DNA of 64,000 nucleotides from Thermodesulfobacteriota bacterium (GTDB taxonomy: Bacteria > Desulfobacterota > QYQD01). A program made the translations under genes and the position numbers. Position 1 is the first letter of the stretch. The number at the start of each line of letters is the position of its first letter. Below the pieces are notes generated by a model that saw nothing but the letters and a program-made list of their open reading frames with translations, ran no database searches and was not told where the DNA came from. The stretch spans positions 148 through 64,147 of the forward strand of contig JBFMAZ010000082.1 of the NCBI GenBank assembly GCA_040755415.1. The letters run 5' to 3'. Shown piece after piece: positions 5,537 to 58,519 of the stretch.

Positions 5537-5623
5537 ATCTTTTATTTTTATCTTCTATATGGCCTGGATTATACCACAGATGACCACTGATAAATCAAGC
5601 CAAAATATATGATATGAAAAATG

Positions 5624-5785
5624 GTATCAGTTTAGCTGTTTGAAAAAGTATTCTTAAATCCCTCCCAACCTCCCTTTTCCAAAGGGAGGAGAAACACTTC
5701 CCCCTTTGGAAAAGGGGGATTGAGGGGGATTTTGGCCCTTATAGCGCCTTGCTTAGGTATATTTTTCAAAAACCTAAAATGTTAC
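5624..5785 (+). mobile_element. 162-bp MITE (family A), diverged copy, with 8-bp TSD GAAAAATG
   Basis: Termini are GTATCAGTTTAGCTGTTTGAAAAAG ... TTTTTCAAAAACCTAAAATGTTAC. It is flanked by GAAAAATG at 5616..5623 and 5786..5793. Confidence 0.85.
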
Positions 5786-5867
5786 GAAAAATGAAATATC
5801 CGACTGCTCAGACAGATAAACGGCCATGGGAACATCGTAAGTATGTTCAGGTGATTAAACGGAAAAT

Positions 5868-8545: not shown

Positions 8546-8701
8546 TTAGTGTTCATCCGGAAACTGCCGTTTTCGGATTCACGCTTTCAGCGATTAGCTA
8601 TCAGCAAAAATCTAAAATAAACAACACATTAAGCTGAACGCTGAAAGCTGAGTGCTGAGAGCACATCCAAATTTTTGGGGTTTCGGGATGGGAACGCGTT
8701 A
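8546..8701. mobile_element. MITE-like element, family B termini with AGCTGA(A/T)AGC core
   Basis: TTAGTGTTCATCCGGAAAC ... GTTTCGGGATGGGAACGCGTTAA. The core is about 85% similar to 48856..49042. Confidence 0.65.
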
Positions 8702-8816: not shown

Positions 8817-8892
8817 GGGCGGTTAACTCAGTGGTTAGAGTGCCATCCTCACACGGTGGAAGTCGCAGGTTCGAATCCCGCACCGCCCACCA
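8817..8892 (+). tRNA. tRNA-Val (anticodon CAC)
   Basis: 76 nt. Acceptor GGGCGGT/ACCGCCC, D loop AGTGGTTAG, anticodon stem CCATC/GGTGG with loop CTCACAC, T arm GCAGG-TTCGAAT-CCCGC, encoded CCA. Confidence 0.9.
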
Positions 8893-15406: not shown

Positions 15407-16452
15407 TAAGGATACCTGACCGCATTAGGAAATGTCTTAGGTGGCAGGTGCTGGTGGGTGTATATGTTGTACTTTTTCTCGCCTATCAGGTTTTCACCTT
15501 TCTCTATATCCCGCCGGAAAGGCATGCAAAGCCAAAGGTTATCTATATCCGGCCAAAGACCAAATTTCTGACTATTTCCCGTCAATTGCAAGACGAAGGC
15601 ATTATTAGAAGCAGTTTTAAATTTGCTATATTGGCAAAACTCACCGGGTCAGTCAACCGGATAAGAGCCGGAGAATATGAACTAAGCCCCTCTATGCTCC
15701 CCCGGGAAGTGCTCAATAAATTGGTCAGTGGCTGGGTTATTCAGCACATGGTCACTATCCCCGAAGGCTACAACATCTATCAGATTGCCGACACACTCGA
15801 TAAGGAAGGGTTAGTAAAAAAACAGGAATTTCTGGCTAGGGCCTTTGACCAGGATCTTATATTATCCCTTGGACTTGAGGGGAAAAGCCTGGAGGGTTAT
15901 CTCTTCCCGGATACCTATGAATTTTGGCGGGATATGCAGACGGAAGACGTCCTTCGTAAGATGACAGGCCGGTTTAAGAAGATATACTCACAGAAGTATG
16001 CAGAAGAGGCTAAAGGACAAGGCCTGTCCATGCGTGAGGTTGTAACGCTGGCCTCCATTATTGAGAAGGAAACCGGTGTCCCGGGCGAGAGGAGACTTAT
16101 TTCGGCTGTCTTCCATAACCGGTTGCGTCGCAGTATGCCCTTGCAGGCAGATCCGACGGTTATTTATGGGATACGCGATTTTAACGGCAACCTCACCAGA
16201 AAGGATCTGCAGACACTAACCCCTTATAATACATACATAATCAAAGGATTACCGCCAGGCCCCATAGCCTGCCCGGGGGAGGAGGCAATCAAAGCGGCCC
16301 TTAATCCTGCAAAAAAAAGGTATTTGTATTTTGTCTCCAAGAATGACGGTTCACATCATTTCTCAAGCACCCTTGAAGCCCACCAACGGGCCGTCGCCAT
16401 ATACCAAAAAAAGCCTGTCTCAGACGTCCCGGCCTCTGACACTACTGATTAA
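15403..16452 (+). CDS. mltG: endolytic murein transglycosylase MltG (YceG)
   Basis: N-terminal TM segment, TIPEGY, ASIIEKET and LQADPTVIYG motifs. Confidence 0.85.
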   Translation: MIRIPDRIRKCLRWQVLVGVYVVLFLAYQVFTFLYIPPERHAKPKVIYIRPKTKFLTISRQLQDEGIIRSSFKFAILAKLTGSVNRIRAGEYELSPSMLPREVLNKLVSGWVIQHMVTIPEGYNIYQIADTLDKEGLVKKQEFLARAFDQDLILSLGLEGKSLEGYLFPDTYEFWRDMQTEDVLRKMTGRFKKIYSQKYAEEAKGQGLSMREVVTLASIIEKETGVPGERRLISAVFHNRLRRSMPLQADPTVIYGIRDFNGNLTRKDLQTLTPYNTYIIKGLPPGPIACPGEEAIKAALNPAKKRYLYFVSKNDGSHHFSSTLEAHQRAVAIYQKKPVSDVPASDTTD

Positions 16453-16570
16453 TTGGTTTCCATCCGAAAATCCCCCTGTATCCCCCTTTTCCAAAGGGGG
16501 ATTTCAATATTTCCCCCCTTTAGCAAAAGGGGGGGGTGGGGGGATTTGGTAGTTTTCGGATGGGAACTAA
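16453..16570. mobile_element. MITE-like element, family B (two CCCCCTTT..AAAGGGGG hairpin modules)
   Basis: TTGGTTTCCATCCGAAAA ... TTTTCGGATGGGAACTAA. It starts directly after the mltG stop and is about 95% identical to 27061..27180. Confidence 0.8.
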
Positions 16571-17384: not shown

Positions 17385-17527
17385 AACCTATAAATCCGAA
17401 ATCCTAATATCGAAACCCGAAACAAATCCTAAATCAAAATGCTCAAATGACCGAAACATAATTGTTTGGAATTTTGGTCATTTGAATTTGTTTCGTGTTT
17501 CGAATTTCGTGCTCCGGATTTCTTGCA
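17385..17527. repeat. AT-rich palindromic element, family C
   Basis: AAATCCGAAATC...GAAACAAATC // GATTTGTTTCG...CCGGATTT. The reverse complement of its right arm closely matches the left arm of 24862..25017. Confidence 0.7.
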
Positions 17528-17718
17528 TTTCTGCATCCTTGGCGGCCTTGCGTGATATTTGAGACCTTACACTCTCTCGCAGACAAAAAAGTAGTGTTTT
17601 TCTGGCCCCCTTCTGCTATAAAATCCAGACAGAAAGAGCTGAAGGCTGAAAGCTGAAAGCCAGGGTTTATATCCTGACTTCTGAATTCTGACTCCTGTAT
17701 TCTGTATTCTTTACAAAT

Positions 17719-23394: not shown

Positions 23395-24789
23395 ATGCGA
23401 TACATAAGCACCAGAGGACAAATAGAACCGGTATCATTCCGGGAGGCAGTCATAATGGGCCTGGCTACGGATGGCGGGCTTTTACTGCCTGAAACTATCC
23501 CTTCAATAAGCGCCGGGGAACTCAAAAATTGGGCTAGGCTATCCTATCCGGAACTGGCCTTTAAGGTCATGTCCCCGTTCATCACGGACATCAAGGCCGA
23601 AGACCTGGAAAGAATGATAAAGCGTTCTTACGCTGCCTTTGACCACCCGGAGATTACGCCTGTGGTCAAAAAGGACGGGATTTACGTGCTTGAACTTTTT
23701 CACGGCCCGACCCTGGCCTTTAAAGACGTGGCCCTACAGTTTCTGGGGAATGTCTTTGAATACCTGCTTCTCGAAGGCGGCCGGAAGATGAACATCCTGG
23801 GGGCTACCTCCGGTGATACCGGAAGTGCAGCTATCTATGGGGTAAGGGGGAAAAAGAATATTAACATCTTTATCCTCCATCCATACAAACGGGTCAGCCC
23901 TATTCAGGAATTGCAGATGACCACAGTGACCGATGCCAATGTCTTCAACGTCGCCATAAGGGGGACATTTGATGACGGCCAGGCCATCGTCAAGACCATA
24001 TTTAATGACCTCCCGTTTAAAGAAAGCCATGCCCTGGGGGCCATAAACTCCATAAACTGGGCGCGCGTCCTGGCGCAGATCGTTTATTATTTCTATGCCT
24101 ATTTCCGGGTCAGGGAAAAGACAGACCGCGAAGAAATCAGTTTTGCCGTCCCTACCGGGAATTTCGGGGACATCTTTGCCGGCTATATAGCCAGGCGGAT
24201 GATGGGAAAGGGATTTCACAGGCTGGTGCTGGCCACCAATGAAAATAATATCCTGACCCGCTTTATTAATGCTGGAGATTATTCTATTGGTAAAGTAGTG
24301 CCGACCGTGAGCCCATCTATGGACATCCAGGTGGCCAGCAACTTTGAACGTTATCTTTACTATTTCTATAATGAAGATGCCGAGCGGGTCAGAGAGGCCA
24401 TGCAATCCTTCAGTAAAAACGGCCACCTGAAATTTACAGAAGAAGAACAGGAACTTGTCAGGAGGGATTTTGTCAGCCGGAGTGTGGATCAGCCAACCAC
24501 ACTTAAAACCATCCGTTCCTTTTATGAAGAAACCGGCTATATTCTTGATCCTCACACGGCGGTCGGGGTAAGGGCAGGACTGGACCTTCGTGAGCCGGAT
24601 GTCCCCATGGTCTGCCTGGCTACCGCTCATCCGGCCAAATTTGGCGAGGCCGTTTCTCAGGCCTTGGGCAGAGAACCGGAACTGCCGCCAGCCCTGCAGG
24701 GCCTTGACAAACGCGAATCGCGATGCGAGGTATTGGAAGCCGATATAGACATCATCAAGGATTACTTGCACAAGAACGCCATATGTTAA
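23395..24789 (+). CDS. thrC: threonine synthase
   Basis: MRYISTRG N-terminus, PLP lysine motif GPTLAFKD, GATSGDTG, 464 aa. Confidence 0.9.
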   Translation: MRYISTRGQIEPVSFREAVIMGLATDGGLLLPETIPSISAGELKNWARLSYPELAFKVMSPFITDIKAEDLERMIKRSYAAFDHPEITPVVKKDGIYVLELFHGPTLAFKDVALQFLGNVFEYLLLEGGRKMNILGATSGDTGSAAIYGVRGKKNINIFILHPYKRVSPIQELQMTTVTDANVFNVAIRGTFDDGQAIVKTIFNDLPFKESHALGAINSINWARVLAQIVYYFYAYFRVREKTDREEISFAVPTGNFGDIFAGYIARRMMGKGFHRLVLATNENNILTRFINAGDYSIGKVVPTVSPSMDIQVASNFERYLYYFYNEDAERVREAMQSFSKNGHLKFTEEEQELVRRDFVSRSVDQPTTLKTIRSFYEETGYILDPHTAVGVRAGLDLREPDVPMVCLATAHPAKFGEAVSQALGREPELPPALQGLDKRESRCEVLEADIDIIKDYLHKNAIC

Positions 24790-24861
24790 GAAGTCCGTAA
24801 CAGTTCAGGTTTTTGAAACGCTATGGGCCACGAAATACGATAGATTTCCGGATATAGCATG

Positions 24862-25017
24862 GTTTCAAATTCGAAATCCGAAGCACGAAACTCGAAACAA
24901 TATCAAATGATCAAAATCCAAATTATCAAAACGAATTGTTCATGCTGCGGTTTTGAACATTGAGACATTAGGAATTTGGATTTGTTTCGAATTTCAATAT
25001 TCGAATTTCGGATTTGG
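24862..25017. repeat. AT-rich palindromic element, family C
   Basis: Arms TTCGAAATCCGAAGCACGAAACTCGAAACA ... TGTTTCGAATTTCAATATTCGAATTTCGGATTT. Confidence 0.7.
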
Positions 25018-25105
25018 CCCTGATCTTGAAGCTGTCGACACTATCGGACTTAATGGCCTTTTCAAAAAGCTGAAATGATACAGAAGTTCAAATTCCAAGG
25101 CTCAA

Positions 25106-26914: not shown

Positions 26915-27060
26915 TAGTCTCCATCCGAAAACCTCCCCTCCCCTAGCGGGAGGGGACTAAGGGGAGGGGGAACATCTCGAAATTGCATAACCTTTTCACC
27001 CCCACCCTAGCCCTCCCCCGTCAAAGGGGGAGGGATATAGGCTTTCCGGCTGGAACTAAC
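26915..27060. mobile_element. MITE-like element, family B variant
   Basis: TAGTCTCCATCCGAAAAC ... GGCTTTCCGGCTGGAACTAAC with GGGAGGGG-type hairpin modules. Confidence 0.7.
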
Positions 27061-27180
27061 TGGTTTCCATCCGAAAATCCCCCTGTATCCCCCTTTTCCA
27101 AAGGGGGATTTCAATATTTTCCCCCCTTTAGCAAAGGGGGGGGGTGGGGGGATTTGGCAGTTTCCGGATGGACACTAACT
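27061..27180. mobile_element. MITE-like element, family B, tandem to the previous one
   Basis: Near-identical to 16453..16570. It ends 27 nt before the fdhA-like ATG. Confidence 0.8.
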
Positions 27181-32014: not shown

Positions 32015-35000
32015 CTAATGTGACGTCTCCTCGATTGTATTATAAATTTCGTCAATTTTTTTCTGTACCTCTATGGTCTTTTGAATTGCAGTGACAATTC
32101 TGCAATAAGTCCGTATCTCGTCAAGGGACAGTATTCGCTCTTTTCTGTCCTTAAGCCATTTATCGCAGACCTGATAACCGCCGATTTGATAAGCCCATAC
32201 ATCAGGGGGAATGCCTTCAAAGTATTGTGCCTTGTTGATGAAAAGGAGACCAAATCCCCCCTCACCCCCCTTTACTAAAGGGGAGATATTGTGAGAAGAA
32301 TCCTTGCTTCCCCTCTTTGGCAAAGAGGGGTTAAGGGGAGATTTTTCGAATAATTCATATCTCAACTTTTCTACCCTGTTATCCCCTTTCCCCTGAAATC
32401 TTGCAATCGGTAAATCGAGGTCAGCCGATTTAAGCAGGTGCAGGTCAACAAGCCTGTTGCCATAGTCGGACATTTTCTCGAACAGCTTGTAGTCCTTTGT
32501 AAACGGCACCCTTGGAAAGTCTATCTTCAGGAACGCTGCATATTTTGTCCTGTAAGTCTCTGAATAAAGAACGGCATAAATGTAATAGAAGATTTCCTCA
32601 GGGGAAGGAGTTTTCTTATAGGCTTTTGATAATTCATCAATAACCTTGGCAGATAAGTTAGTCTTTTTTACTCCATAATCTGCCTTCGGTTCAAACAGCA
32701 TCAATACGCCGCCAAAGGACCGCTTCTTTTTATCCTTGACTTGATAGATATAGAGAGGAAAAAGATACGACCGTTCTCGTGTCTCTAACGAGACGGTACA
32801 GTCGTTAATAATGCTGTTCGTACATAACGCGTGTTTAAATTCTGCATTGATCTGGCGATTTGTGATCACCCCTAAGTTCTCTTTCAACATATGCTGCATT
32901 ACTTCTTTCCGGGATCGCTCAATGACTGCGTCGTGGTAGAAAATCCACCGCTCATCGAATGGGCGATACAATATCTTTGTAATGGCTTGATCCCAGTCAG
33001 GATCTTTGACGACGCGCTCCCTCGCATCTCTCAGTGTCCAGTTAGTTTTATCTTTCAGTTTATAAGTCTGTTGTATTATTTCATCAGGTAATTTCTTGTC
33101 CCTGAACTGCAATATTCTTCTCCGCAGTCGATCCCGATCAAAATCAATAACGAATTCATCGCGTGAGGTTACGATCCCCACACTGCTCACCGGAAAGATA
33201 TCGGTAATCTTCATGTGCCTTTCATAAACAGATGACAACTTTTCATCGCGGGGGAAGAACAGATAGAATTCGGATTTAGGGGAAAGCCTCTTCCATTTGG
33301 TTGTTGTAATATCGTGCTTATTAAGCCAATTGTATTTCTTTTCTCTGAGCCCCCATAGTTCGGAATGGAAAACTTTTGACCCGCCTCTTAACCTCCCTTT
33401 GCCAAGAGGGGTTTTCTTGATAAAGACAGCAATAGCAACTCCTTGCTGAATATCAAAGACATTCTCATCTCTTGACCCGTCAGGGCCTTTTTCCTTCTTG
33501 AGGCTGTTGCCGTGCAGGTCAAGGATATACATCACGTCGAAACTCCGCATCAGCGACTGACGCATCCCCCTAAAAGTCGGATTATCGAGATAGCTGTGGT
33601 TTGTAATAAACCCGAGGACCCCTTGGCCGGCCTGATCGATCTTCCACTGGGCAAAACGGATGAACTTTACATAATCGTCCTGAAGCCACTTGGGGTTCTT
33701 TTCATTAAGCGGTCTCCCATCGACTTGATGGTACGCCTTAATCTCGCTTGAGATCCAGTCACCGATATTTGACGAATGTCCCGAATAGGGCGGGTTTCCC
33801 AGAATCACGAGTATTGGTTGTTCTTTCTTCACCAGACCGGCCAGATGAGACTCTTCAGACAATGAGGCCATCCCGGGCAGTTCTGTTTGAGCCACCTCTT
33901 CCATTTCGAGCGTATTGGTAAGATAAAGTTTCACCCGGTCATCCCTCTGTAACCTGTACTCTAATTCCTCCAGAAGGAAAGACATCTTCAGATGCCCGAC
34001 GGCATAGGGGGCCATCATCAATTCAAAGGCATAGAGGTTTTTCAGGATATGTTCTTTTATAAAATTCTCCCTGCCTCCCTCTCCGTATTTGGAAACAAAT
34101 TCATCAATTGCAAGTTTTGCCGCCTCTGCCAAAAAGGCAAGCGTTCCTGCCGCAGGGTCTAAGACAGTCACGTTCTTATCTGCAAATCCATCAGGTTTAT
34201 TGAAATGCCCTTTCAGAATGTTATGTAAGGAGCGGACTATGTAGGAAACCACAGGCTCAGGCGTGTAATACACACCCCTCATCTCCCTTGTCTTCGGGTC
34301 ATACGCGGCAAGGAAGGTTTCGTAGAAATGAACGATAGGGTCTTTCCCTTTGCCCTCATGGAAAAATTGATGAAGTATCTTGCTCACATCCGTGAGGGAA
34401 AGGATTTCCGATATATCATCAACAATCCATTCCATCTGCTGGGGGAGGGCGCCCAATGAAACAAACTGGAAAACGTCTCTCAGTATTCCAATTGTTTGGG
34501 GTATGTTGTGATAGGCAAGTTTCCTATTGAAGCCATTTTCTGAACGAGTCCTGGCTGCAAATAGGCCGTAGGTGATAGTCTGTGCGTAAAGGTCCGAGAA
34601 TTCGTCTTCCGTAAGGCCGCTGATAAGATAATCCTTAAAAGCCTTGTAAAATCCCCTGATAAATCCCTTGCCTGCACTCTGTTCTTCCCTCAGTTCCTGC
34701 GCTATAACCTCATCCTTTAAAAAGCGTGTCCTTTTGGCAAGTTCAACGGCAAGGTTCTTTGCGTCATATACTTTCGGTAACGAAAAGGAAAAGAACTTTC
34801 CCAGCAGTTGCAGGAATTCAGGTTCCTTTTCGACAGGTGGGGTAGTTTTCAGCTTATGAACTACGTATGGCCTTCCGACAATGACTTTATCCGTTCTGAC
34901 ACCGTTATGGTAAAGCCTGAACTCAAAGAAATTGGTAAGAATAACATTCGGAAAAGTATGCAAGTATCTCTTTAGCTGCTCTGTTTCCTCTATCCTGTCA

Positions 35001-35302
35001 AGATTTTCAATGGTAGGGTCTTTAGCCTCAATGTATCCCGTGATATGTTGTTTGCCGTCCCACACTCTGAAGTCCGGATTACCTGCTTCCGTCTTTTTGG
35101 GAAGAATCGTTATATGAAAATTTTTCTTTCCGGTTAAGCCGCAATACCCATCAAGAAGAGATTTCAGGACCGGGTAATAGCTTTCTTCCCTTGCATCCCC
35201 TCGTGTGCCGGCATCGGCTATCTGTTTTAAATAGTCTTTAAGCATGACCAACCTATCGATGATTTCCGGGCCGGCGCTCGTAGCCTCGTTGATTCTCAAC
35301 AT
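32015..35302 (-). CDS. single-chain type IIG/IIL (MmeI-like) restriction-modification enzyme: PD-ExK nuclease + N6-adenine methyltransferase + C-terminal specificity domain
   Basis: PDFRVWDGKQHITGYIEAKD (D-X9-ExK as in the MmeI family), AdoMet motif VLDPAAGTLAF, catalytic NPPY (ILGNPPYSGH). C-terminal IGGYQVCDKWLKDRK is typical of type ISP/IIG specificity domains. Confidence 0.8.
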   Translation of the reverse strand: MLRINEATSAGPEIIDRLVMLKDYLKQIADAGTRGDAREESYYPVLKSLLDGYCGLTGKKNFHITILPKKTEAGNPDFRVWDGKQHITGYIEAKDPTIENLDRIEETEQLKRYLHTFPNVILTNFFEFRLYHNGVRTDKVIVGRPYVVHKLKTTPPVEKEPEFLQLLGKFFSFSLPKVYDAKNLAVELAKRTRFLKDEVIAQELREEQSAGKGFIRGFYKAFKDYLISGLTEDEFSDLYAQTITYGLFAARTRSENGFNRKLAYHNIPQTIGILRDVFQFVSLGALPQQMEWIVDDISEILSLTDVSKILHQFFHEGKGKDPIVHFYETFLAAYDPKTREMRGVYYTPEPVVSYIVRSLHNILKGHFNKPDGFADKNVTVLDPAAGTLAFLAEAAKLAIDEFVSKYGEGGRENFIKEHILKNLYAFELMMAPYAVGHLKMSFLLEELEYRLQRDDRVKLYLTNTLEMEEVAQTELPGMASLSEESHLAGLVKKEQPILVILGNPPYSGHSSNIGDWISSEIKAYHQVDGRPLNEKNPKWLQDDYVKFIRFAQWKIDQAGQGVLGFITNHSYLDNPTFRGMRQSLMRSFDVMYILDLHGNSLKKEKGPDGSRDENVFDIQQGVAIAVFIKKTPLGKGRLRGGSKVFHSELWGLREKKYNWLNKHDITTTKWKRLSPKSEFYLFFPRDEKLSSVYERHMKITDIFPVSSVGIVTSRDEFVIDFDRDRLRRRILQFRDKKLPDEIIQQTYKLKDKTNWTLRDARERVVKDPDWDQAITKILYRPFDERWIFYHDAVIERSRKEVMQHMLKENLGVITNRQINAEFKHALCTNSIINDCTVSLETRERSYLFPLYIYQVKDKKKRSFGGVLMLFEPKADYGVKKTNLSAKVIDELSKAYKKTPSPEEIFYYIYAVLYSETYRTKYAAFLKIDFPRVPFTKDYKLFEKMSDYGNRLVDLHLLKSADLDLPIARFQGKGDNRVEKLRYELFEKSPLNPSLPKRGSKDSSHNISPLVKGGEGGFGLLFINKAQYFEGIPPDVWAYQIGGYQVCDKWLKDRKERILSLDEIRTYCRIVTAIQKTIEVQKKIDEIYNTIEETSH
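32245..32350. mobile_element. family B hairpin element inserted in frame inside the RM gene
   Basis: ACCAAATCCCCCCTCACCCCCCTTTACTAAAGGGG...CCCCTCTTTGGCAAAGAGGGG. It is translated as FEKSPLNPSLPKRGSKDSSHNISPLVKGGEGGFG. Confidence 0.7.
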
Positions 35303-42800: not shown

Positions 42801-43697
42801 ATGTCAGATGAAACACTCGTGTCTCAAAGAGACACAAAGAACAATGGAGAAAATCCCCCCTCACCCCCCTTTAATAAAGGGGGGGATACATTAAGTCCTC
42901 TTTTGAAAAAAGGGGGAGAGCCGTCAAATCCCCCTTTGGGAAAAGATGGAGGCCCATCAATTCCCCCTTTGGAAAAGGGGGATACAGGGGGATTTTCTGG
43001 TGAAAAGAAAGCCTTCGTAGAAAAGAAATTTTCATCCATCACCCCGCGCTACGATTTCCTTAATTCCTTGCTGAGTCTAAATATTGACCGCTACTGGCGA
43101 TGGGTGACCGCCCGTGAGTTAGACAATTATACGGGGGGACCAATTCTCGACCTCTGCGCCGGCACACTGCCCTTAAGCCTTAGCATAGCCGGACGCAGGC
43201 CCGAACGATATGTGTTGGCCCTCGATCTCTGCCGGGATATGCTGGCCTACGGTCGCAACAGACTAAATGGCCGGGTAGCAGGCCGGCAAATTATCCCGAT
43301 TTGTGCAGACGGAGAAGAAATACCCTGTTGCGATAATAGCTTTTCCGGGATTACCGTGGCCTTTGGAGTGCGTAACCTGAGCAATCTGGATAAGGGCCTT
43401 AAGGAGATGTGGCGCGTCCTCCGGCCCGGGGGGAAACTGGTCATCCTTGAGTTTTCTCGCCCTAAAAATCCGGTCATGCGGACGCTTTATTTTTTCTACC
43501 TCATGCGGATCCTGCCATATATCGGCGGCCGGATATCTGGCGACGAAGAGGCTTACCGCTATCTGGCGAATTCTATCCGCCTCTTTTACTCGCCGGAAGA
43601 ATTAGCGCAAAAAATGAAAAATACCGGTTACGTAAAGGTAACCTATCGCCCGCTCACGGCCGGTATAGTGACTTTATATACTGGAGAAAAGCCTTGA
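42801..43697 (+). CDS. menG: demethylmenaquinone methyltransferase (UbiE/MenG) with repeat-derived N-terminal extension
   Basis: Conserved core starts at KKFSSITPRYDFLNSLLSLNIDRYWR. SAM motif ILDLCAGT. About 65 aa upstream of the core are encoded by a family B element. Confidence 0.85.
   Translation: MSDETLVSQRDTKNNGENPPSPPFNKGGDTLSPLLKKGGEPSNPPLGKDGGPSIPPLEKGDTGGFSGEKKAFVEKKFSSITPRYDFLNSLLSLNIDRYWRWVTARELDNYTGGPILDLCAGTLPLSLSIAGRRPERYVLALDLCRDMLAYGRNRLNGRVAGRQIIPICADGEEIPCCDNSFSGITVAFGVRNLSNLDKGLKEMWRVLRPGGKLVILEFSRPKNPVMRTLYFFYLMRILPYIGGRISGDEEAYRYLANSIRLFYSPEELAQKMKNTGYVKVTYRPLTAGIVTLYTGEKP
42819..43009. mobile_element. family B element (three hairpin modules) inside the menG reading frame
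   Basis: GTGTCTCAAAGA...GGGGGATACAGGGGGATTTTCTGGTGAAAAG. Its right end matches the left end of 16453..16570 in inverted orientation. Confidence 0.75.
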
Positions 43698-43759
43698 TAT
43701 TCACCGCGGAGAACATAAAGAAAACATCTCAAATCTGAAATTTGAGATTTGAAATTCTT

Positions 43760-43921
43760 GTAACACTTTAGCTGTTTGAAAAGAGCTAGTCGTCCAGAAA
43801 ACGGCGCCTCGAAAATCCCCCTTAATCCCCCTTTTTCAAAGGGGGAAATGTTTCTCCTCCCTTTGGAAAAGGGAGGTTGGGAGGGATTTTAAAATACTTT
43901 TTCAAACAGCTAAACTGATAC
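43760..43921 (-). mobile_element. 162-bp MITE (family A) with 8-bp TSD AAATTCTT
   Basis: By base-by-base comparison it is identical to the reverse complement of 57167..57328. It is flanked by AAATTCTT at 43752..43759 and 43922..43929. Confidence 0.9.
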
Positions 43922-43986
43922 AAATTCTTCTCTTTGCGTGCTCTGCGCTAAATATTACATTCCGAGCGCTAAAAGGGAGGTTCGCT

Positions 43987-45429: not shown

Positions 45430-45472
45430 TGAATTTATCTGCATCGGGCAGACAAAGGGCGATAAAACACCC

Positions 45473-45662
45473 ATGTCTCAAAGAAATATAAAGAACAAAG
45501 AAAACAATCCCCCCTTACCCCCCTTTAGTAAAGGGGGGGATATTTTAAGCCCCCCCTTGAAAAAAGACGGGGGTCTGTCGATTCCCCTTTTGGGAAAGAA
45601 TGGGCACCCATCAATTCCCCCTTTGGAAAAGGGGGATACAGGGGGATTTTCTGGTGAAAAAA
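45473..45662. mobile_element. family B element (three hairpin modules) inside the ubiX reading frame
   Basis: ATGTCTCAAAGA...GGGGGATACAGGGGGATTTTCTGGTGAAAAAA, colinear with 42819..43009. Confidence 0.75.
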
Positions 45663-48855: not shown

Positions 48856-49042
48856 TTAGTGTCCATCCGAAAACTACTGTTCCCGGCTTCCTATCTGTGT
48901 GCGACGCACAGGCAGGCACGCTTTCAACGATCAGCGATTAGCTATTAGCAAAAACCTAAGACAAACAACACATTAAGCTGAACGCTGATAGCTGAGTGCT
49001 GACAGTTCATCCGAAATTTTTGGGTTTCCGGGTGAAAACTAA
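48856..49042. mobile_element. MITE-like element, family B termini with AGCTGA(A/T)AGC core
   Basis: TTAGTGTCCATCCGAAAAC ... GGGTTTCCGGGTGAAAACTAA; core homologous to 8546..8701. Confidence 0.65.
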
Positions 49043-52567: not shown

Positions 52568-52711
52568 TGGATCCCCCTCGTTTTGAGCTATAAGTCAGCA
52601 GTCAGCAGGAAAAGGCCGATGGCTTATAGCTGATAGCTGAACGCTTATTTATAAGAATCGGCAGGAAAAACAATTAACTTTAAGGTTGATGAACTCGTAA
52701 AAAGTCAGATT

Positions 52712-52872
52712 TCCCCTCCCCTGGGAGGCTGTGTCATAATCGTTATTTGTCATTGCGAGCGACCGAAGGGAGCGCGGCAATCTCTATAATTTCAATACGT
52801 TGTGAGATTGCTTCGGTCGTTTCACTCCCTCGCAATGACATTACGACACAGTCTCTTGGTGGGAGGGGACTA
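52712..52872. repeat. composite palindromic element containing GTCATTGCGAG arms
   Basis: Outer arms TCCCCTCCCCTGGGAGG / CTTGGTGGGAGGGGA. Inner arms GTCATTGCGAGCGACCGAAGG...GCAATCTC // GAGATTGC...CTCGCAATGAC. Confidence 0.75.
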
Positions 52873-53448
52873 AGGGGGAACACGTTAAAAGCTGTCACTT
52901 ATTTGGTCAGCCCGATTTTGAGATAGCGTTGGCAATAGCCGAAGTACAAACTCCCAAGTGTCTGGCTATCTCCACCCTTAGTGACTCCCGGCTCATGAGT
53001 TAGTGGTGGAGGGGGGCCTGGAGCGTATAATCTGGCTCGACGAGGCATAGAGGGTTTTTAGCACAAACCTATTTACTCGTAAGGTGAATAGGTTTTAAGC
53101 ACGTTTCTGGGCCTTGAAGCCGCCTGGAACGCATTCGGGGTCGGCAACCCCGGGAAACCTTCCAGACATTTTGCAAGAGGCTCATACTATACGCATATTT
53201 TTAAAAGGGAGATAATTATGTTACGATCGCAAAATCAGGAAGGTGATTGACACATAATTTAGCCAATGATACTTAACCAAGGAGGCGGAGTATGTCAACG
53301 GACTACTTGGTGCGGATAATGGACTGAACCTAACGAGGCAAGAGAATATTATAAAATAATAGACGCCCCCGAAGTACACAAGAGGTACTGTTAAAGGTGG
53401 AATGAATTCCAATAATTATACGTTAATCTGCGTAAGGAGCGTGTATTG

Positions 53449-54665
53449 ATGGCAAATGAAGACCTGTCGAAGCTGAAGATAGACAAGACTGCAGAAGTCT
53501 ATAGGCCGCAGAAGAGGCATAAGGTATTCTATTGGATAGGCGGGGTAATTGTCCTTGCGCTTGCAACGATCCTTTTTGCAAAAGGGGTTTTTACGCCGCG
53601 GTTGAGGTAGCGCCGGCAAATGTAACACAGATATATCCGTCACAGACATTTACACTTCTCAATGCCAGCGGGTATGTTGTAGCCCAGCGGAAGGCTGCCG
53701 TTGCTTCAAAGGTAACCGGACGTCTCATATCGCTGACAGTAGAAGAAGGCAGCAGAGTAAAAAAGGGAGAGGTGATCGCCCGTCTTGAAAACGATGACGT
53801 TATCGCAGCGCGCAGCCAGGCGGAGGCAAATCTGAATGCGGCACGACATAACCTTGAACAGGCAAAGGCGGAACTGAATGACGCCACGGTCTCTTTCGAA
53901 CGATACAGGAATCTGATAGGGGAGGGGTTTGTTTCAAAAGCAGACTATGACGCCTCAGATGCGCGGTATAGAAAGGCAGCCGCTGCGGTTGCGGCTGCTG
54001 GGGCAGCGGTCAAGGCGGGCAATGCGGCCCTTCAGAGCACAAATGTCGCGGTCGAATATACTTTTATACGCGCCCCGTTTGATGCGGTGGTATTGACCAA
54101 AAATGCAGATGTGGGTGATATCGTCACTCCCATAGGCGCCGCCGCCGATGCCAAGGCGGCCGTAGTAACCATTGCCGATATGGAGTCGCTCCTTGTGGAA
54201 GTCGATGTATCGGAATCGAACCTTCAGATGGTGAGGACGGGGCAGCCATGCGAAATACAGCTTGATGCCTTGCCTGATTCACGATTCCGCGGGGTCGTTC
54301 ATATGATCGTACCCACAGCCGATCGCACGAAAGCAACGATATTGGTGAAAGTCCGTTTTGTTGATAAAGACAACAGAGTATTACCGGAGATGAGCGCCAA
54401 GGCGGCATTTCTTTCACGGGAGATAAGAGACGATGAACAAAAGCCGCGCACCGCTCTTAATCCCGCTGCCGTAACCGACCGTAAAGGCAGGGCCTCGGTT
54501 TTTCTTATCAAAGAGGATAGGGCGATTGAGACGCCGGTGACCTTGGGTGAAAAGCTCGGCGATATGGTGGAGGTTCTGGGTGGTGTGAAGGCAGGGGACA
54601 GGGTTGTGCTGAGGCCGCTGGACAAGGTTAAAAACGGCTCGAGGATAAAAATCGCAGAAAAGTAA
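53449..54665 (+). pseudogene. HlyD/MacA-type periplasmic adaptor, frameshifted after the N-terminal TM helix
   Basis: ATG 53449 (AAGGAG RBS) encodes MANEDLSKL...VFYWIGGVIVLALATILFAKGVF, then stops at 53608. The rest of the protein (VEVAPANV...barrel and coiled-coil) continues in another frame across GCAAAAGGGGTTTTT (53578..53592). Confidence 0.65.
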
Positions 54666-55366
54666 TGGACAACGGATCTCCGATTGTAGAAATAAGGAAG
54701 CTTTCCAAGTCATATCGCCGCGGCAACCAGATTATCTCCGTTTTAAATGAGATATCTCTGGATATCAGCCGGGGAGAATTCATGGCCCTGATGGGGCCGT
54801 CAGGCTCCGGAAAGACAACTCTGTTGAACCTGATAGCCGGGATAGACCGGCCGGACAGCGGAACGATAACCGTAGGCGGCATCGACATCACCGCCCTTTC
54901 CGAAACCGAACTTGCCCGCTGGCGCGCCTCAAGTGTCGGCTTTATATTCCAGTTTTACAACCTGATCCCTGTTCTTACCGCTTTTGAGAATGTTGAACTG
55001 CCCCTGCTTCTGACCGGGCTTTCGAGAAGGGATCGGAGAACACATGTTGATATGGCCCTGCGAGCGGTGAACCTTGCGGACAGGATGGACCATTATCCGG
55101 GGCAGCTCTCAGGCGGACAACAACAGCGCGTTGCCATCGCACGCGCTGTTGTCACCGATCCGATGATTCTGGTTGCAGATGAGCCGACCGGCGACCTGGA
55201 TCGCGTTTCAGCAGAAGAGATACTGGAATTGATGGAACGTCTCGTTCATGAGCTCGGCAAGACCATTATCATGGTTACACATGATCCCAGGGCAGCCAGG
55301 AAGGCCCATGTTATCCAGTACCTGGATAAAGGTATTTTGAATGCGCATCCTCAAGCCGATTTTTAA
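54665..55366 (+). CDS. ABC transporter ATP-binding protein (MacB/LolD-like)
   Basis: Walker [10 protein letters not shown], signature [14 protein letters not shown], Walker [13 protein letters not shown]. Confidence 0.9.
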
Positions 55367-56500
55367 AAATGCATTCCGGCATAAACTCCGCACCTTTCTG
55401 ACCGTGCTCGGCGTCACCATTGCCATCCTCGCCTTCGGCCTCTTGCGTACCGTGATAAGCGCCTGGTACACAGGTGTTGAGGCCTCTTCCGCCAGCCGCC
55501 TTGTGACGAGAAATTCCGTATCGCTTATTTTTCCCCTTCCTGTTTCGTACAAAGAGAAGATTCGCCAGATCGAAGGGGGTGAAGGTGGTCTCTTTCGGTA
55601 GCTGGTTCGGCGGTATCTACATTGACGAAAAAAACTTCTTTGCAAATTACGCCGTAGAACCCCGGACCTATCTTCAACTGTATCCTGAATTTGTTATTCC
55701 TGAGGGACAGAGGGGCGCTTTTTTCCGTGACAGGAAATCCGCCGTTGCCGGCCACAAGCTGGCCGCTAAATATGGCTGGAAGATCGGCGATATGATAACC
55801 CTTAAAGGGACCATCTTCCCCGGCGACTGGGATTTTGTCTTACGAAGTATCTACAAGGGGAGAGACGAGACGGTGGATGAGACTGCTTTTTTCTTCCACT
55901 GGGAATATCTCAACGAGACGTTGAAGCAAAAGGCCCCCGGCCGGGCGGATCAGGTAGGTTTCTATATGATCGGGGGTAACCGACCCGAACCTGGCTGCCG
56001 ATGTGGCTGCAGAAATCGATAAGGCATTCAAGAACTCCATTGCGGAGACATTGACTGAAACGGGAAAATCATTCCAACTCGGCTTTATCTCGATGTCCGA
56101 GGCGATAGTCGTCGCCGTTCAGTTGGTATCCTTCGTGATAATCATCATTATTATGGCGGTGGTCGCCAATACTATGGCAATGACCGCACGGGAGAGAATC
56201 GGTGAATACGCCGTCTTCAAGACGCTCGGATTCGGTAGTCTCTACATTTCAGCCTTGATATTCGGTGAATCCCTGTTTGTCACAATGATAGGGTCTGCCA
56301 TAGGTATTGTACTCACCTTCCCGGCGGCAGAGATTTTCAGTAAGCAATTGAGCACATACTTCCCTGTATTCAATGTTGCCACGGAAACCATTTATATGGA
56401 TATCCTGGCGTCTTTCCTGGTGGCATCAGTCGCGGCAATCTTTCCGGCCTGGCGTGCCGTCAATATCCGCATAGCTGACGGGCTGAGGAGGATAGGGTAA
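55341..56500 (+). pseudogene. FtsX/MacB-type ABC permease split into three frames by two +1 shifts in G5 runs
   Basis: ORFs 55341..55601, 55579..56022 and 56003..56500 are colinear pieces. Removing one G at 55575..55579 and one at 55972..55976 restores ...IEGVKVVSF... and ...MIGVTDPNLAADVAAEIDK.... Confidence 0.65.
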
Positions 56501-57837
56501 GTGAAGATACCCTTTTCATACAGTCTCCGCAATCTTTGGACACGCCGCCTTACCACCGTTCTTACCATAGCGGGCATGGCCCTTGTTGTTTTTGTATTCT
56601 CAGCGATTCTCATGCTTGCCGAGGGGCTGCAAAAGACCTTGGTGGATACCGGCTCATATGATAACGCGGTGATAATCCGCAAGGCGGCGGGATCAGAGGT
56701 GCAGAGCGGGGTGGAGCGTCCGCAGGCTTCCATAATCGAAACCCAGCCGGAAGTGGCTATAGGCGCAGACGGCAAACGCCTGCTGGTAAAGGAATTGGTC
56801 GTCCTTATCGTTCTACCTAAACGCGGAACTGATAAACCGGCCAATGTCGTCATAAGGGGAATCTCCGGGAGTTCAATGCTTCTTCGGCCGCAGGTAAGAT
56901 TGACGGAGGGGCGCATGCCGAGACCGGGCTCTTCAGAGATAATCGCCGGACAGAGCGTGGCCAAGAGGTTTAAGGGAGGAGGCATCGGGGAGACGCTCCG
57001 CTTCGGCATGAGGGACTGGACCGTGGGAGGGATATTTGACGCAGGGAATACCGGCTATGCCTCAGAGATATGGGGCGATGTGGATCAACTCATGCAGGCC
57101 TTCCGGCGTCCTGTCTATTCTTCGATCTTGTTCAGGCTGCGTGATTCTTCGGAATTTGAAAGATTCGTATCAGTTTAGCTGTTTGAAAAAGTATTTTAAA
57201 ATCCCTCCCAACCTCCCTTTTCCAAAGGGAGGAGAAACATTTCCCCCTTTGAAAAAGGGGGATTAAGGGGGATTTTCGAGGCGCCGTTTTCTGGACGACT
57301 AGCTCTTTTCAAACAGCTAAAGTGTTACAAAGATTCAAGGCGCGCATCGAAAGCGACCCCCGGCTCACGCTTGAGGCATTGCGTGAGACACGGTACTATG
57401 AAAAACAGTCGGAGATGATGGCAAAATTCCTCCGCATCCTCGGCATTACTCTGACGTTGATATTTTCTCTCGGCGCCGTTATCGGCGCAATGATTACCAT
57501 GTACGCCGCGGTTGCCAACAGAACCGATGAAATCGGCACCATGCGCGCACTCGGTTTCCAGCGACGGAGTATTCTGGCAACCTTTGTCATGGAGTCACTG
57601 CTCCTTGGATTTATCGGGGGTTTTATCGGACTGTTTTTCGCCTCTTTCTTGCAGCTTTTCACCATTTCCACCATGAACTTCCAGACTTTTTCCGAGCTTG
57701 CCTTTTCATTTTCGCTGACCTTCGGGATCATTTACAAGGCTATGGCCTTTGCGCTGATAATGGGCTTTGTAGGCGGTGTTCTTCCCGCAGTCAGGGCGGC
57801 GAGGATGAGTATTGTGGAGTCATTGAGGGCAAGTTGA
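56501..57837 (+). pseudogene. second FtsX/MacB-type ABC permease, interrupted by a 162-bp MITE
   Basis: ORFs 56501..57178 and 57322..57837. Removing the element and one TSD copy restores ...SSEFERFKARIESDP... in frame. Confidence 0.8.
57167..57328 (+). mobile_element. 162-bp MITE (family A) inserted in the permease gene, TSD AAAGATTC
   Basis: Termini GTATCAGTTTAGCTGTTTGAAAAAG / CTTTTCAAACAGCTAAAGTGTTAC. Duplicated AAAGATTC at 57159..57166 and 57329..57336. Confidence 0.9.
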
Positions 57838-58519
57838 TTGTCGCGATTTTATAGGTAGATATGAGTTTATATGTGGGATCTTGGGGACGCTCCTAAGATT
57901 ATAGGTTACTATAGATTTCTTCCATGTAAATAATGGCCCGGGATAATTCGAATTCGTTGCTCAAAGAGTAGAAACTTATAAACTAATAAGCCCAAGATAC
58001 ACCTTGGTTCCAAAAGTCCATGTGGTCACAATTCCCAGCACTGCAATCAATATAATAGGCTATAGGAAAGTCATCACCTACTACCCAAATATCAAAGCGA
58101 ATCACGCCGACCTTTTCTCCTTTGGCTTTGTCTGTAAAAAGAATCGGCAACTCTTCCGGGGTAGGTTCTTTAAATGTAATATTATTTAAATGTCATTTTA
58201 TTGTACTATACAGAATATGTCAGCGGTCCCGTGAAAACGTAAGAAAACGGGCAATTTGAAAATGCAGCACTTTTGTGGCATAGAGTATGCTTGCATGGTG
58301 CATGTGAACCCTGTGAACTCAAATACTTACAAGAATACGAAGAAGAGAAGAACAGTATTGATTGAGCATTTTGGGAAGAAGACCGGCATTTTCATGTTGC
58401 CAGATCTGATGCATATTCAGATTACCGCTGACAGAATATGGTGTTATTGTGGAGACTAAAGGACGAATTGATGTTCGATACCTTGTAATCGGTATGCCCG
58501 GGCGGTCGTACCGGGAGAG

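Follow-up and report, generated by a model that had tools for sequence, protein, structure and literature searches.

The window analysed here, a 64,000-nt stretch of contig JBFMAZ010000082.1 from a Thermodesulfobacteriota bacterium, contains an operon of four plus-strand genes for an adaptor, an ABC ATPase and two FtsX-family permeases. The second permease gene is split by a short element that is flanked by a target-site duplication (TSD). The features of the operon and of the element are listed below, with the single-base lesion in the adaptor given relative to the related genome "Thermodesulfobacteriota bacterium MAG273."

53449..54665 (+), adaptor (MacA/HlyD-like); 1 bp shorter than MAG273 at 53596-53597 (CCC to CC), a deletion that leads to a premature TAG at 53608-53610
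54665..55366 (+), ABC ATPase (LolD/MacB-NBD-like); sole intact gene of the operon
55341..56500 (+), permease 1; now in three frames, owing to +1 G insertions at 55575-55579 and 55972-55976, each turning G4 to G5
56501..57178 (+), permease 2, 5' fragment, with TM1 and the MacB-like periplasmic core domain; 222 native residues, then VSV and a stop
57159..57166 (no strand), left TSD copy, AAAGATTC; present once in the MAG273 empty site
57167..57328 (+), 162-bp MITE without coding capacity
57167..57189 (+), left 23-bp terminal inverted repeat, GTATCAGTTTAGCTGTTTGAAAA; contains the in-frame TAG at 57176-57178
57199..57276 (+), inner double-hairpin module, consisting of an A-tract, C/G-rich stems and a T-tract
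57306..57328 (−), right 23-bp terminal inverted repeat, GTAACACTTTAGCTGTTTGAAAA
57329..57336 (no strand), right TSD copy, AAAGATTC
57337..57837 (+), permease 2, 3' fragment, carrying the FtsX C-terminal membrane domain; no longer in the frame of the 5' fragment and 96.1% identical to MAG273

The encoded proteins are like those of the MacAB-type and LolCDE-type type VII ABC transporters, with which they share an N-terminal TM helix, a MacB-like core and an FtsX domain, together with a MacA-like adaptor and a LolD/MacB-like ATPase. The separate ATPase polypeptide and the two paralogous permeases are LolC/LolE-like, whereas MacB is a fused protein. All NCBIfam equivalog scores for the operon were far below their cut-offs (for the permease, 38.8 bits against 966 for MacB and 35.3 against 362 for lolCE), and no equivalog-level name was assigned.

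As it stands, the permease 2 frame runs three codons into the left terminus of the element and ends at TAG 57176-57178. Deletion of 57167..57336 (170 bp, i.e., the element plus one copy of the duplication) restores an open frame of 388 codons reading ...EFERFKARIESD..., so that the two ORFs are rejoined as the initial annotation had proposed, and the reading frame likewise bears out its statement that the net insertion of 170 bp causes a frameshift. The rejoined protein matches Pfam MacB_PCD (PF12704) over residues 19-227 (E = 2.7e-18) and FtsX (PF02687) over residues 260-381 (E = 2.7e-16), and residue 222, where the insertion junction lies, is within the unbroken MacB_PCD match. GTDB genomes were scanned and yielded 566 relatives of permease 2, the best 80 of which (70-82% amino acid identity) all aligned over residues 1-389 in a single HSP, with none interrupted (80/80); the junction region, SSEF..FK.RIE.DPRLTLEA, is conserved among these same 80. 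The two half-ORFs might instead have been independent genes, a case that had been named, together with a lack of empty-site alleles, as what would speak against an insertion, and the unsplit relatives contradict it. Around 30 orthologue loci had apparently longer match spans, which turned out to be weak extra HSPs to the upstream paralogue, and insertions at these loci were rejected. The truncated permease 2 is a null allele that encodes TM1 and the periplasmic domain without the FtsX membrane domain.

The element itself was found where it had been placed, at 57167..57328, with AAAGATTC duplicated perfectly over 8 bp at its two ends in an AT-rich site. Its terminal inverted repeats are imperfect, as described before, but they measure 23 bp, with 21/23 positions identical, and not the "about 24" bp first given. 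A terminus pattern allowing ≤3 mismatches had seven matches in the window vs. 0.00 expected from 100 shuffles, and the 162-bp element is predicted to fold into a single long hairpin (−71 kcal/mol, z = −7.8). A search of Rfam yielded no family for the element, just sub-threshold look-alikes of eukaryotic miRNA hairpins.

Three further members of the same family are present in the window:

43760..43921 (−), identical copy (162/162) between ubiE and ubiD; perfect duplication AAATTCTT at 43752-43759 and 43922-43929
5624..5785 (+), third 162-bp copy, intergenic, 130/162 identical; duplication GAAAAATG at 5616-5623 and 5786-5793
24797..25081 (+), fourth member, 285 bp, termini with 4 and 3 mismatches; duplication AGAAGTCC / AGAAGTTC

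The initial annotation had correctly reported the identical copy at 43760..43921, which is in inverted orientation, although not its own duplication AAATTCTT, and had missed the other two, so that the window holds four family members rather than two. Because both of the identical inverted copies retain matching duplications, no inversion has taken place between them since insertion. The copy at 5624..5785, located between a sigma-54-activator-like gene and a DUF3106 gene, differs from 57167..57328 in its right subterminal segment. The 285-bp member, an older member of the family with an interior unrelated to that of the 162-bp copies, starts 7 bp past the thrC stop codon (24787-24789), the last base of which is also the first base of the left duplication. 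Three of the four duplications are perfect over 8 bp and the fourth matches at 7/8 positions; the member at 57167..57328 is the sole intragenic one, the other three being intergenic. Within the interior of the 285-bp member (24880-25015), 66 nt have a 76% inverted match to an intergenic AT-rich stretch near 17392-17457 (region 17392-17520), which may be a remnant of a related element.

The uninterrupted form of the permease site was recovered from MAG273. A 24-mer made up of the left flank and the duplication had a single match in the genome collection, on MAG273 contig JBFMFO010000040.1, and no match in the JGI metagenomes. The MAG273 site reads ...GAATTTGAAAGATTCAAAACACGCATCGAAAGC..., with one AAAGATTC and the element absent, and this contig thereby supplies the precise empty-site allele that had been called for when the insertion was first suggested. 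Alignment of the MAG273 contig to the window covers 53430-57166 at 94.4% and 57329-57839 at 96.1% identity, and the two alignments overlap by exactly 8 bp, AAAGATTC. Elsewhere, the MAG273 genome has three or more copies belonging to this MITE subfamily. Homology to this genome extends from 19 bp before the adaptor start codon to 2 bp past the permease stop (53430-57839), the genes flanking the operon being unrelated between the window and MAG273 (L117), and close orthologues of the operon are present in Nitrospirota, Brocadia, Geobacter, and Chloroflexota MAGs. This restriction of the homology to the operon, together with the spread of close orthologues over several phyla, suggests a horizontally mobile accessory cassette. 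Given that the flanks of its operon differ from those in the window, MAG273 may hold a transferred copy rather than the strict ancestor of the locus, which does not weaken the empty-site argument.

Erroneous joining of a dispersed repeat into the permease gene during assembly is conceivable in a genome rich in short dispersed repeats with the same inner module, but a mis-join would give neither an exact 8-bp target duplication nor flanks that are base-exact and colinear with an intact relative. Moreover, three other sites in the window and many independently assembled MAGs show this architecture too, and we regard an artefact of this kind as extremely improbable. Because of the empty site, the unsplit orthologues, the further copies with TSDs of their own and the wider family described below, we conclude that 57167..57328 is a genuine, recently active MITE; together with the Pfam match that spans the junction, the empty site and the unsplit orthologues also uphold the original proposal that a recent MITE insertion splits an FtsX/MacB-type permease gene.

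The operon carries other damage as well. The adaptor is stopped after 53 codons by its 1-bp deletion, permease 1, which is broken twice here, is unbroken in MAG273 and in L041, and all three frameshifts are absent from MAG273. Pairwise comparison of the four genes with those of MAG273 gave a dN/dS of 0.10 at a dS of 0.18, which indicates that purifying selection acted for nearly all of the divergence and that the damage is recent. Around 30 other genes of the window were checked and had full-length Pfam domains with no split, adjacent same-strand ORFs belonging to different families.

All three frameshifts are ±1 changes in runs of three to five identical bases (G4 to G5 twice and C3 to C2 once), a kind of error typical of certain sequencing platforms, and if they were assembly or sequencing errors the MITE would be the sole real lesion and the primary cause of the loss of the pump. 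Their concentration in one operon argues against general assembly error, given three events in 4.4 kb against none seen over the remaining ∼52 kb of coding DNA; a uniform error rate that high would have broken most genes. Assembly error in these short homopolymers thus retains a small share of the probability, and we consider it unlikely. The whole operon is freshly decaying and in early pseudogenisation.

These additional lesions also bear on the idea that the insertion is tolerated or even adaptive, either with the permease made as two polypeptides or with the element serving as a regulatory or terminator cassette. A GTG at 57322, within the right terminus, is in frame with the 3' half of permease 2, which would restart there, but this GTG is preceded by no Shine-Dalgarno-like sequence, and 0/80 of the best 80 of the 566 relatives are split. 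The element does contain a terminator-like hairpin flanked by an A-tract and a T-tract, but no promoter-like site. MITEs elsewhere occupy operons without doing damage, as outlined for Chunjie in PMC10969869, but here permease 1 and the adaptor are frameshifted too and a working pump cannot be assembled. Tolerance or adaptation is in our judgment highly improbable, and we retain the reading of the insertion as one lesion in a decaying operon.

That the identity of the two 162-bp copies argues for very recent mobilisation, as had been suggested from the sequence of the window, is reinforced by comparison of the 162/162 identity with the operon dS of 0.18. With 0 differences in 162 bp vs. a host-gene dS of 0.18, the window and MAG273 had separated long before the last transposition (or conversion). 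The identity of the two copies could also come from gene conversion instead of recency.

The family extends beyond the window and MAG273, and is defined by a terminus that forms a 23-bp inverted repeat, GTAWCASTTTAGCTGTTTGAAAA, with an 8-bp TSD. At least 36 stretches from other MAGs contain the exact 23-mer, with hosts that, among the matches listed, were mostly Thermodesulfobacteriota/"Deltaproteobacteria" and also included Nitrospinota and a Sumerlaeota bin; diverged copies were present in a 2.3-Mb Brocadia contig and a Nitrospirota MAG. Paired elements, i.e., those of the fetched loci plus the four of the window in which both termini are present (n = 38), measure 112-285 bp, and their 8-bp duplications are perfect in 18/38 and have one mismatch in 6/38. 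Over the 76 ends, most of positions 1-23 are more than 90% conserved, with an abrupt loss of conservation at position 24, and the consensus start is GTA(A/T)CA. The duplications have an A+T content of 68% vs. 50% for the window, and many resemble RAANNNTC. The interiors are interchangeable, with CCCTTT-loop-AAAGGG hairpins in just 16/38 of the paired elements. A 27-mer specific to the subfamily recovered five loci, namely four MITE copies of 162-165 bp, one of them (L018) with an indel in the second of its termini, and a 69-bp deletion derivative in MAG Yes70-07 (L119, 2548-2616); the same 27-mer had no match in the JGI metagenomes. What the derivative retains is its two termini with the right subterminal segment; the hairpin module is missing altogether and is therefore dispensable cargo or a secondary insertion.

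The inner module (57199-57276) also forms part of further repeats in the window, and it is found on unrelated plasmids too. An intergenic match of about 91% over two pieces was found on Acinetobacter plasmids (L118, 3001-3095), where the module lies directly 3' of a stop codon, and weaker matches were found on Planktothrix and Nostoc plasmids. The module resembles a bidirectional terminator. Its dispersal on its own, in the window and on the Acinetobacter and cyanobacterial plasmids, and the G/C-rich hairpin interior of the element could be taken to indicate a REP/BIME-like palindrome moved by a RAYT (IS200/IS605-type), or another non-DDE element. To our knowledge, however, REPs have no terminal inverted repeats or target duplications; here terminal repeats are present and 8-bp duplications are the rule. 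The conserved part is moreover the 23-bp terminus and not the hairpin (present in 16/38), and the 69-bp derivative is entirely without the module. A REP-like origin thus has next to no likelihood, and we continue to treat the element as a MITE.

Terminal inverted repeats combined with a fixed 8-bp duplication point, on established transposon biology, to a DDE-type transposase acting in trans. From the anatomy of the element we infer a non-autonomous cut/copy DNA transposon, both termini of which would be bound by a transposase supplied in trans. A staggered 8-bp cut would have been made within the second FtsX-family permease gene, at AAAGATTC (codons 220-222), the element would have been joined in, and gap repair would have duplicated the 8 bp. 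The net insertion of 170 bp shifts the frame, with the left terminus supplying a TAG three codons in. The insertion took place after the split from the MAG273 lineage and very recently, an identical second copy lying 13 kb away. Alongside the three single-base frameshifts, it is one of the steps by which a dispensable accessory operon is freshly becoming pseudogenised, and not a regulatory innovation. Taken as a whole, the best explanation, to which we assign a probability of roughly 0.9, is that a recent, trans-mobilised MITE has knocked out the last gene of a decaying MacB-like export operon.

A parent insertion sequence was sought in several ways. Pfam scans of 46 ORFs and fragments detected no transposase in the window, the neighbourhoods of unpaired termini in 16 loci yielded no autonomous IS, and an all-against-all blast of 121 fetched loci revealed no IS-length repeats common to them. 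A scan of GTDB genomes for the exact terminus gave, among the matches listed, just MITE-sized pairs or degenerate partners. The terminus had no match in IMG/VR viral contigs, and a plasmid search with it returned chance matches alone. The best terminus-like match, on Lactiplantibacillus plasmids, directly outside the inverted repeat of the IS30-like ISLsa1, was rejected as chance with an E-value of 3.

The 8-bp duplication is shared between this family and the IS66 family, and the ISL3, IS256, and IS1595 families likewise make 8-bp duplications, so that any of these three is also a candidate origin of the MITE. IS66-family elements have 8-bp direct repeats and 20-30-bp terminal repeats starting GTAAGCG (PMC11946415); the ends here are GTAACAC / GTATCAG, of which only GTA(A) matches GTAAGCG, and just 3-5 terminal bases fit the family signature. 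For ISDge4, a single-ORF member of the ISBst12 group within the IS66 family, termini of GTAACTGCTCAGCA / GTGACTACTCAGCA and an 8-bp repeat are reported (PMC12898284), and the pattern GTAAC..T.AGC is common to its termini and those of this family. The ends of the MITE would be compatible with the IS66 origin that the initial annotation had offered as a guess. No IS66-type transposase with such ends was found in the searches above.

In its small size, absence of an ORF, terminal inverted repeats and TSD, the family is like the bacterial MITEs Correia, RUP, Nezha, and Chunjie (PMC10969869, PMC3184786), and it also resembles bacterial MITEs generally in its variable-length copies, strongly folding transcript, mostly intergenic copies, occasional gene disruption, and empty sites in relatives. 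It differs from them in spanning several anaerobe phyla rather than one genus and in that no parent IS was found. Chunjie, from Geobacter uraniireducens Rf4 (Chen et al., 2008, as summarised in PMC3184786 and PMC10969869), is described in these summaries as 178-235 bp long, with ∼21-bp terminal repeats and recent activity; its host is likewise an anaerobic "delta-proteobacterium." One of its copies lies within a transport operon, as here, reportedly without disturbing that operon (PMC10969869), whereas here the gene is truncated. According to the account in PMC3184786, Chunjie has 9-bp direct repeats, which, compared with the 8 bp here, set it apart as a different family.

No published description of the 23-bp terminus sequence was found, and the elements apparently constitute an undescribed but conventional MITE family. 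A more far-reaching interpretation would have the terminus define an undescribed cross-phylum MITE superfamily, represented in Thermodesulfobacteriota, Nitrospinota, Nitrospirota, Planctomycetota/Brocadia, and Sumerlaeota MAGs, with interchangeable interiors and no recognisable resident parent IS. Its members would be vehicles for a portable, bidirectional-terminator-like A-tract/T-tract double-hairpin module that would also circulate alone and would have become an in-frame part of ubiE and ubiX at their 5' ends. We consider this doubtful, and speak below of the conventional family.

The filled and empty sites, a donor-like copy of identical sequence, and older copies come together in one data set, which makes the locus a textbook-quality example of an active MITE in an uncultured anaerobe. 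The family still moves at present and is usable as a strain-level marker, and an accessory efflux operon has been caught at the first steps of decay. The terminus motif provides a simple flag for this repeat family in MAGs of several phyla, where insertions appear as unexplained split genes. The event is a well-documented but ordinary loss of a gene to a mobile element that reveals no new mechanism, and as an annotation result it is of modest general interest.

Several other repeats were observed in the window. A 200-bp repeat, 84% identical between 42807-43006 and 45461-45660, occupies the 5' ends of ubiE and ubiX in the same orientation; it is built from the same C5/G5 hairpin modules and is open in frame with both genes. 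The putative N-terminal extensions of ∼68 and ∼89 residues are PPLxKGG-rich and precede the Pfam domains, and the repeat could be either a translated extension or an intercistronic repeat. A 94-nt repeat, 90% identical between 16450-16543 and 27057-27150 and seen also at 32252-32283, contains a C5-TTT-loop-AAA-G5 module without GTA termini. Members of a 109-nt repeat family, 86% identical between 8587-8695 and 48931-49039 and also represented at 17637-17656 and 52628-52647, are built around short motifs of the AGCTGAACGCTGAAAGCTGA type, and one of the copies precedes tRNA-Val (8817-8892) at a short distance. The non-coding stretch of ∼880 bp upstream of the operon contains, at 52748-52840, a 37-nt inverted repeat formed by TGTCATTGCGAGCGACCGAAGGGAGCGCGGCAATCTC and its complement. 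At 32015-35302 (−), the window also encodes a 1095-residue Type ISP restriction-modification enzyme with N6_Mtase, Eco57I, and Type_ISP_C domains, which begins at residue 320 of the usual architecture, the N-terminal nuclease/helicase part not being detected.
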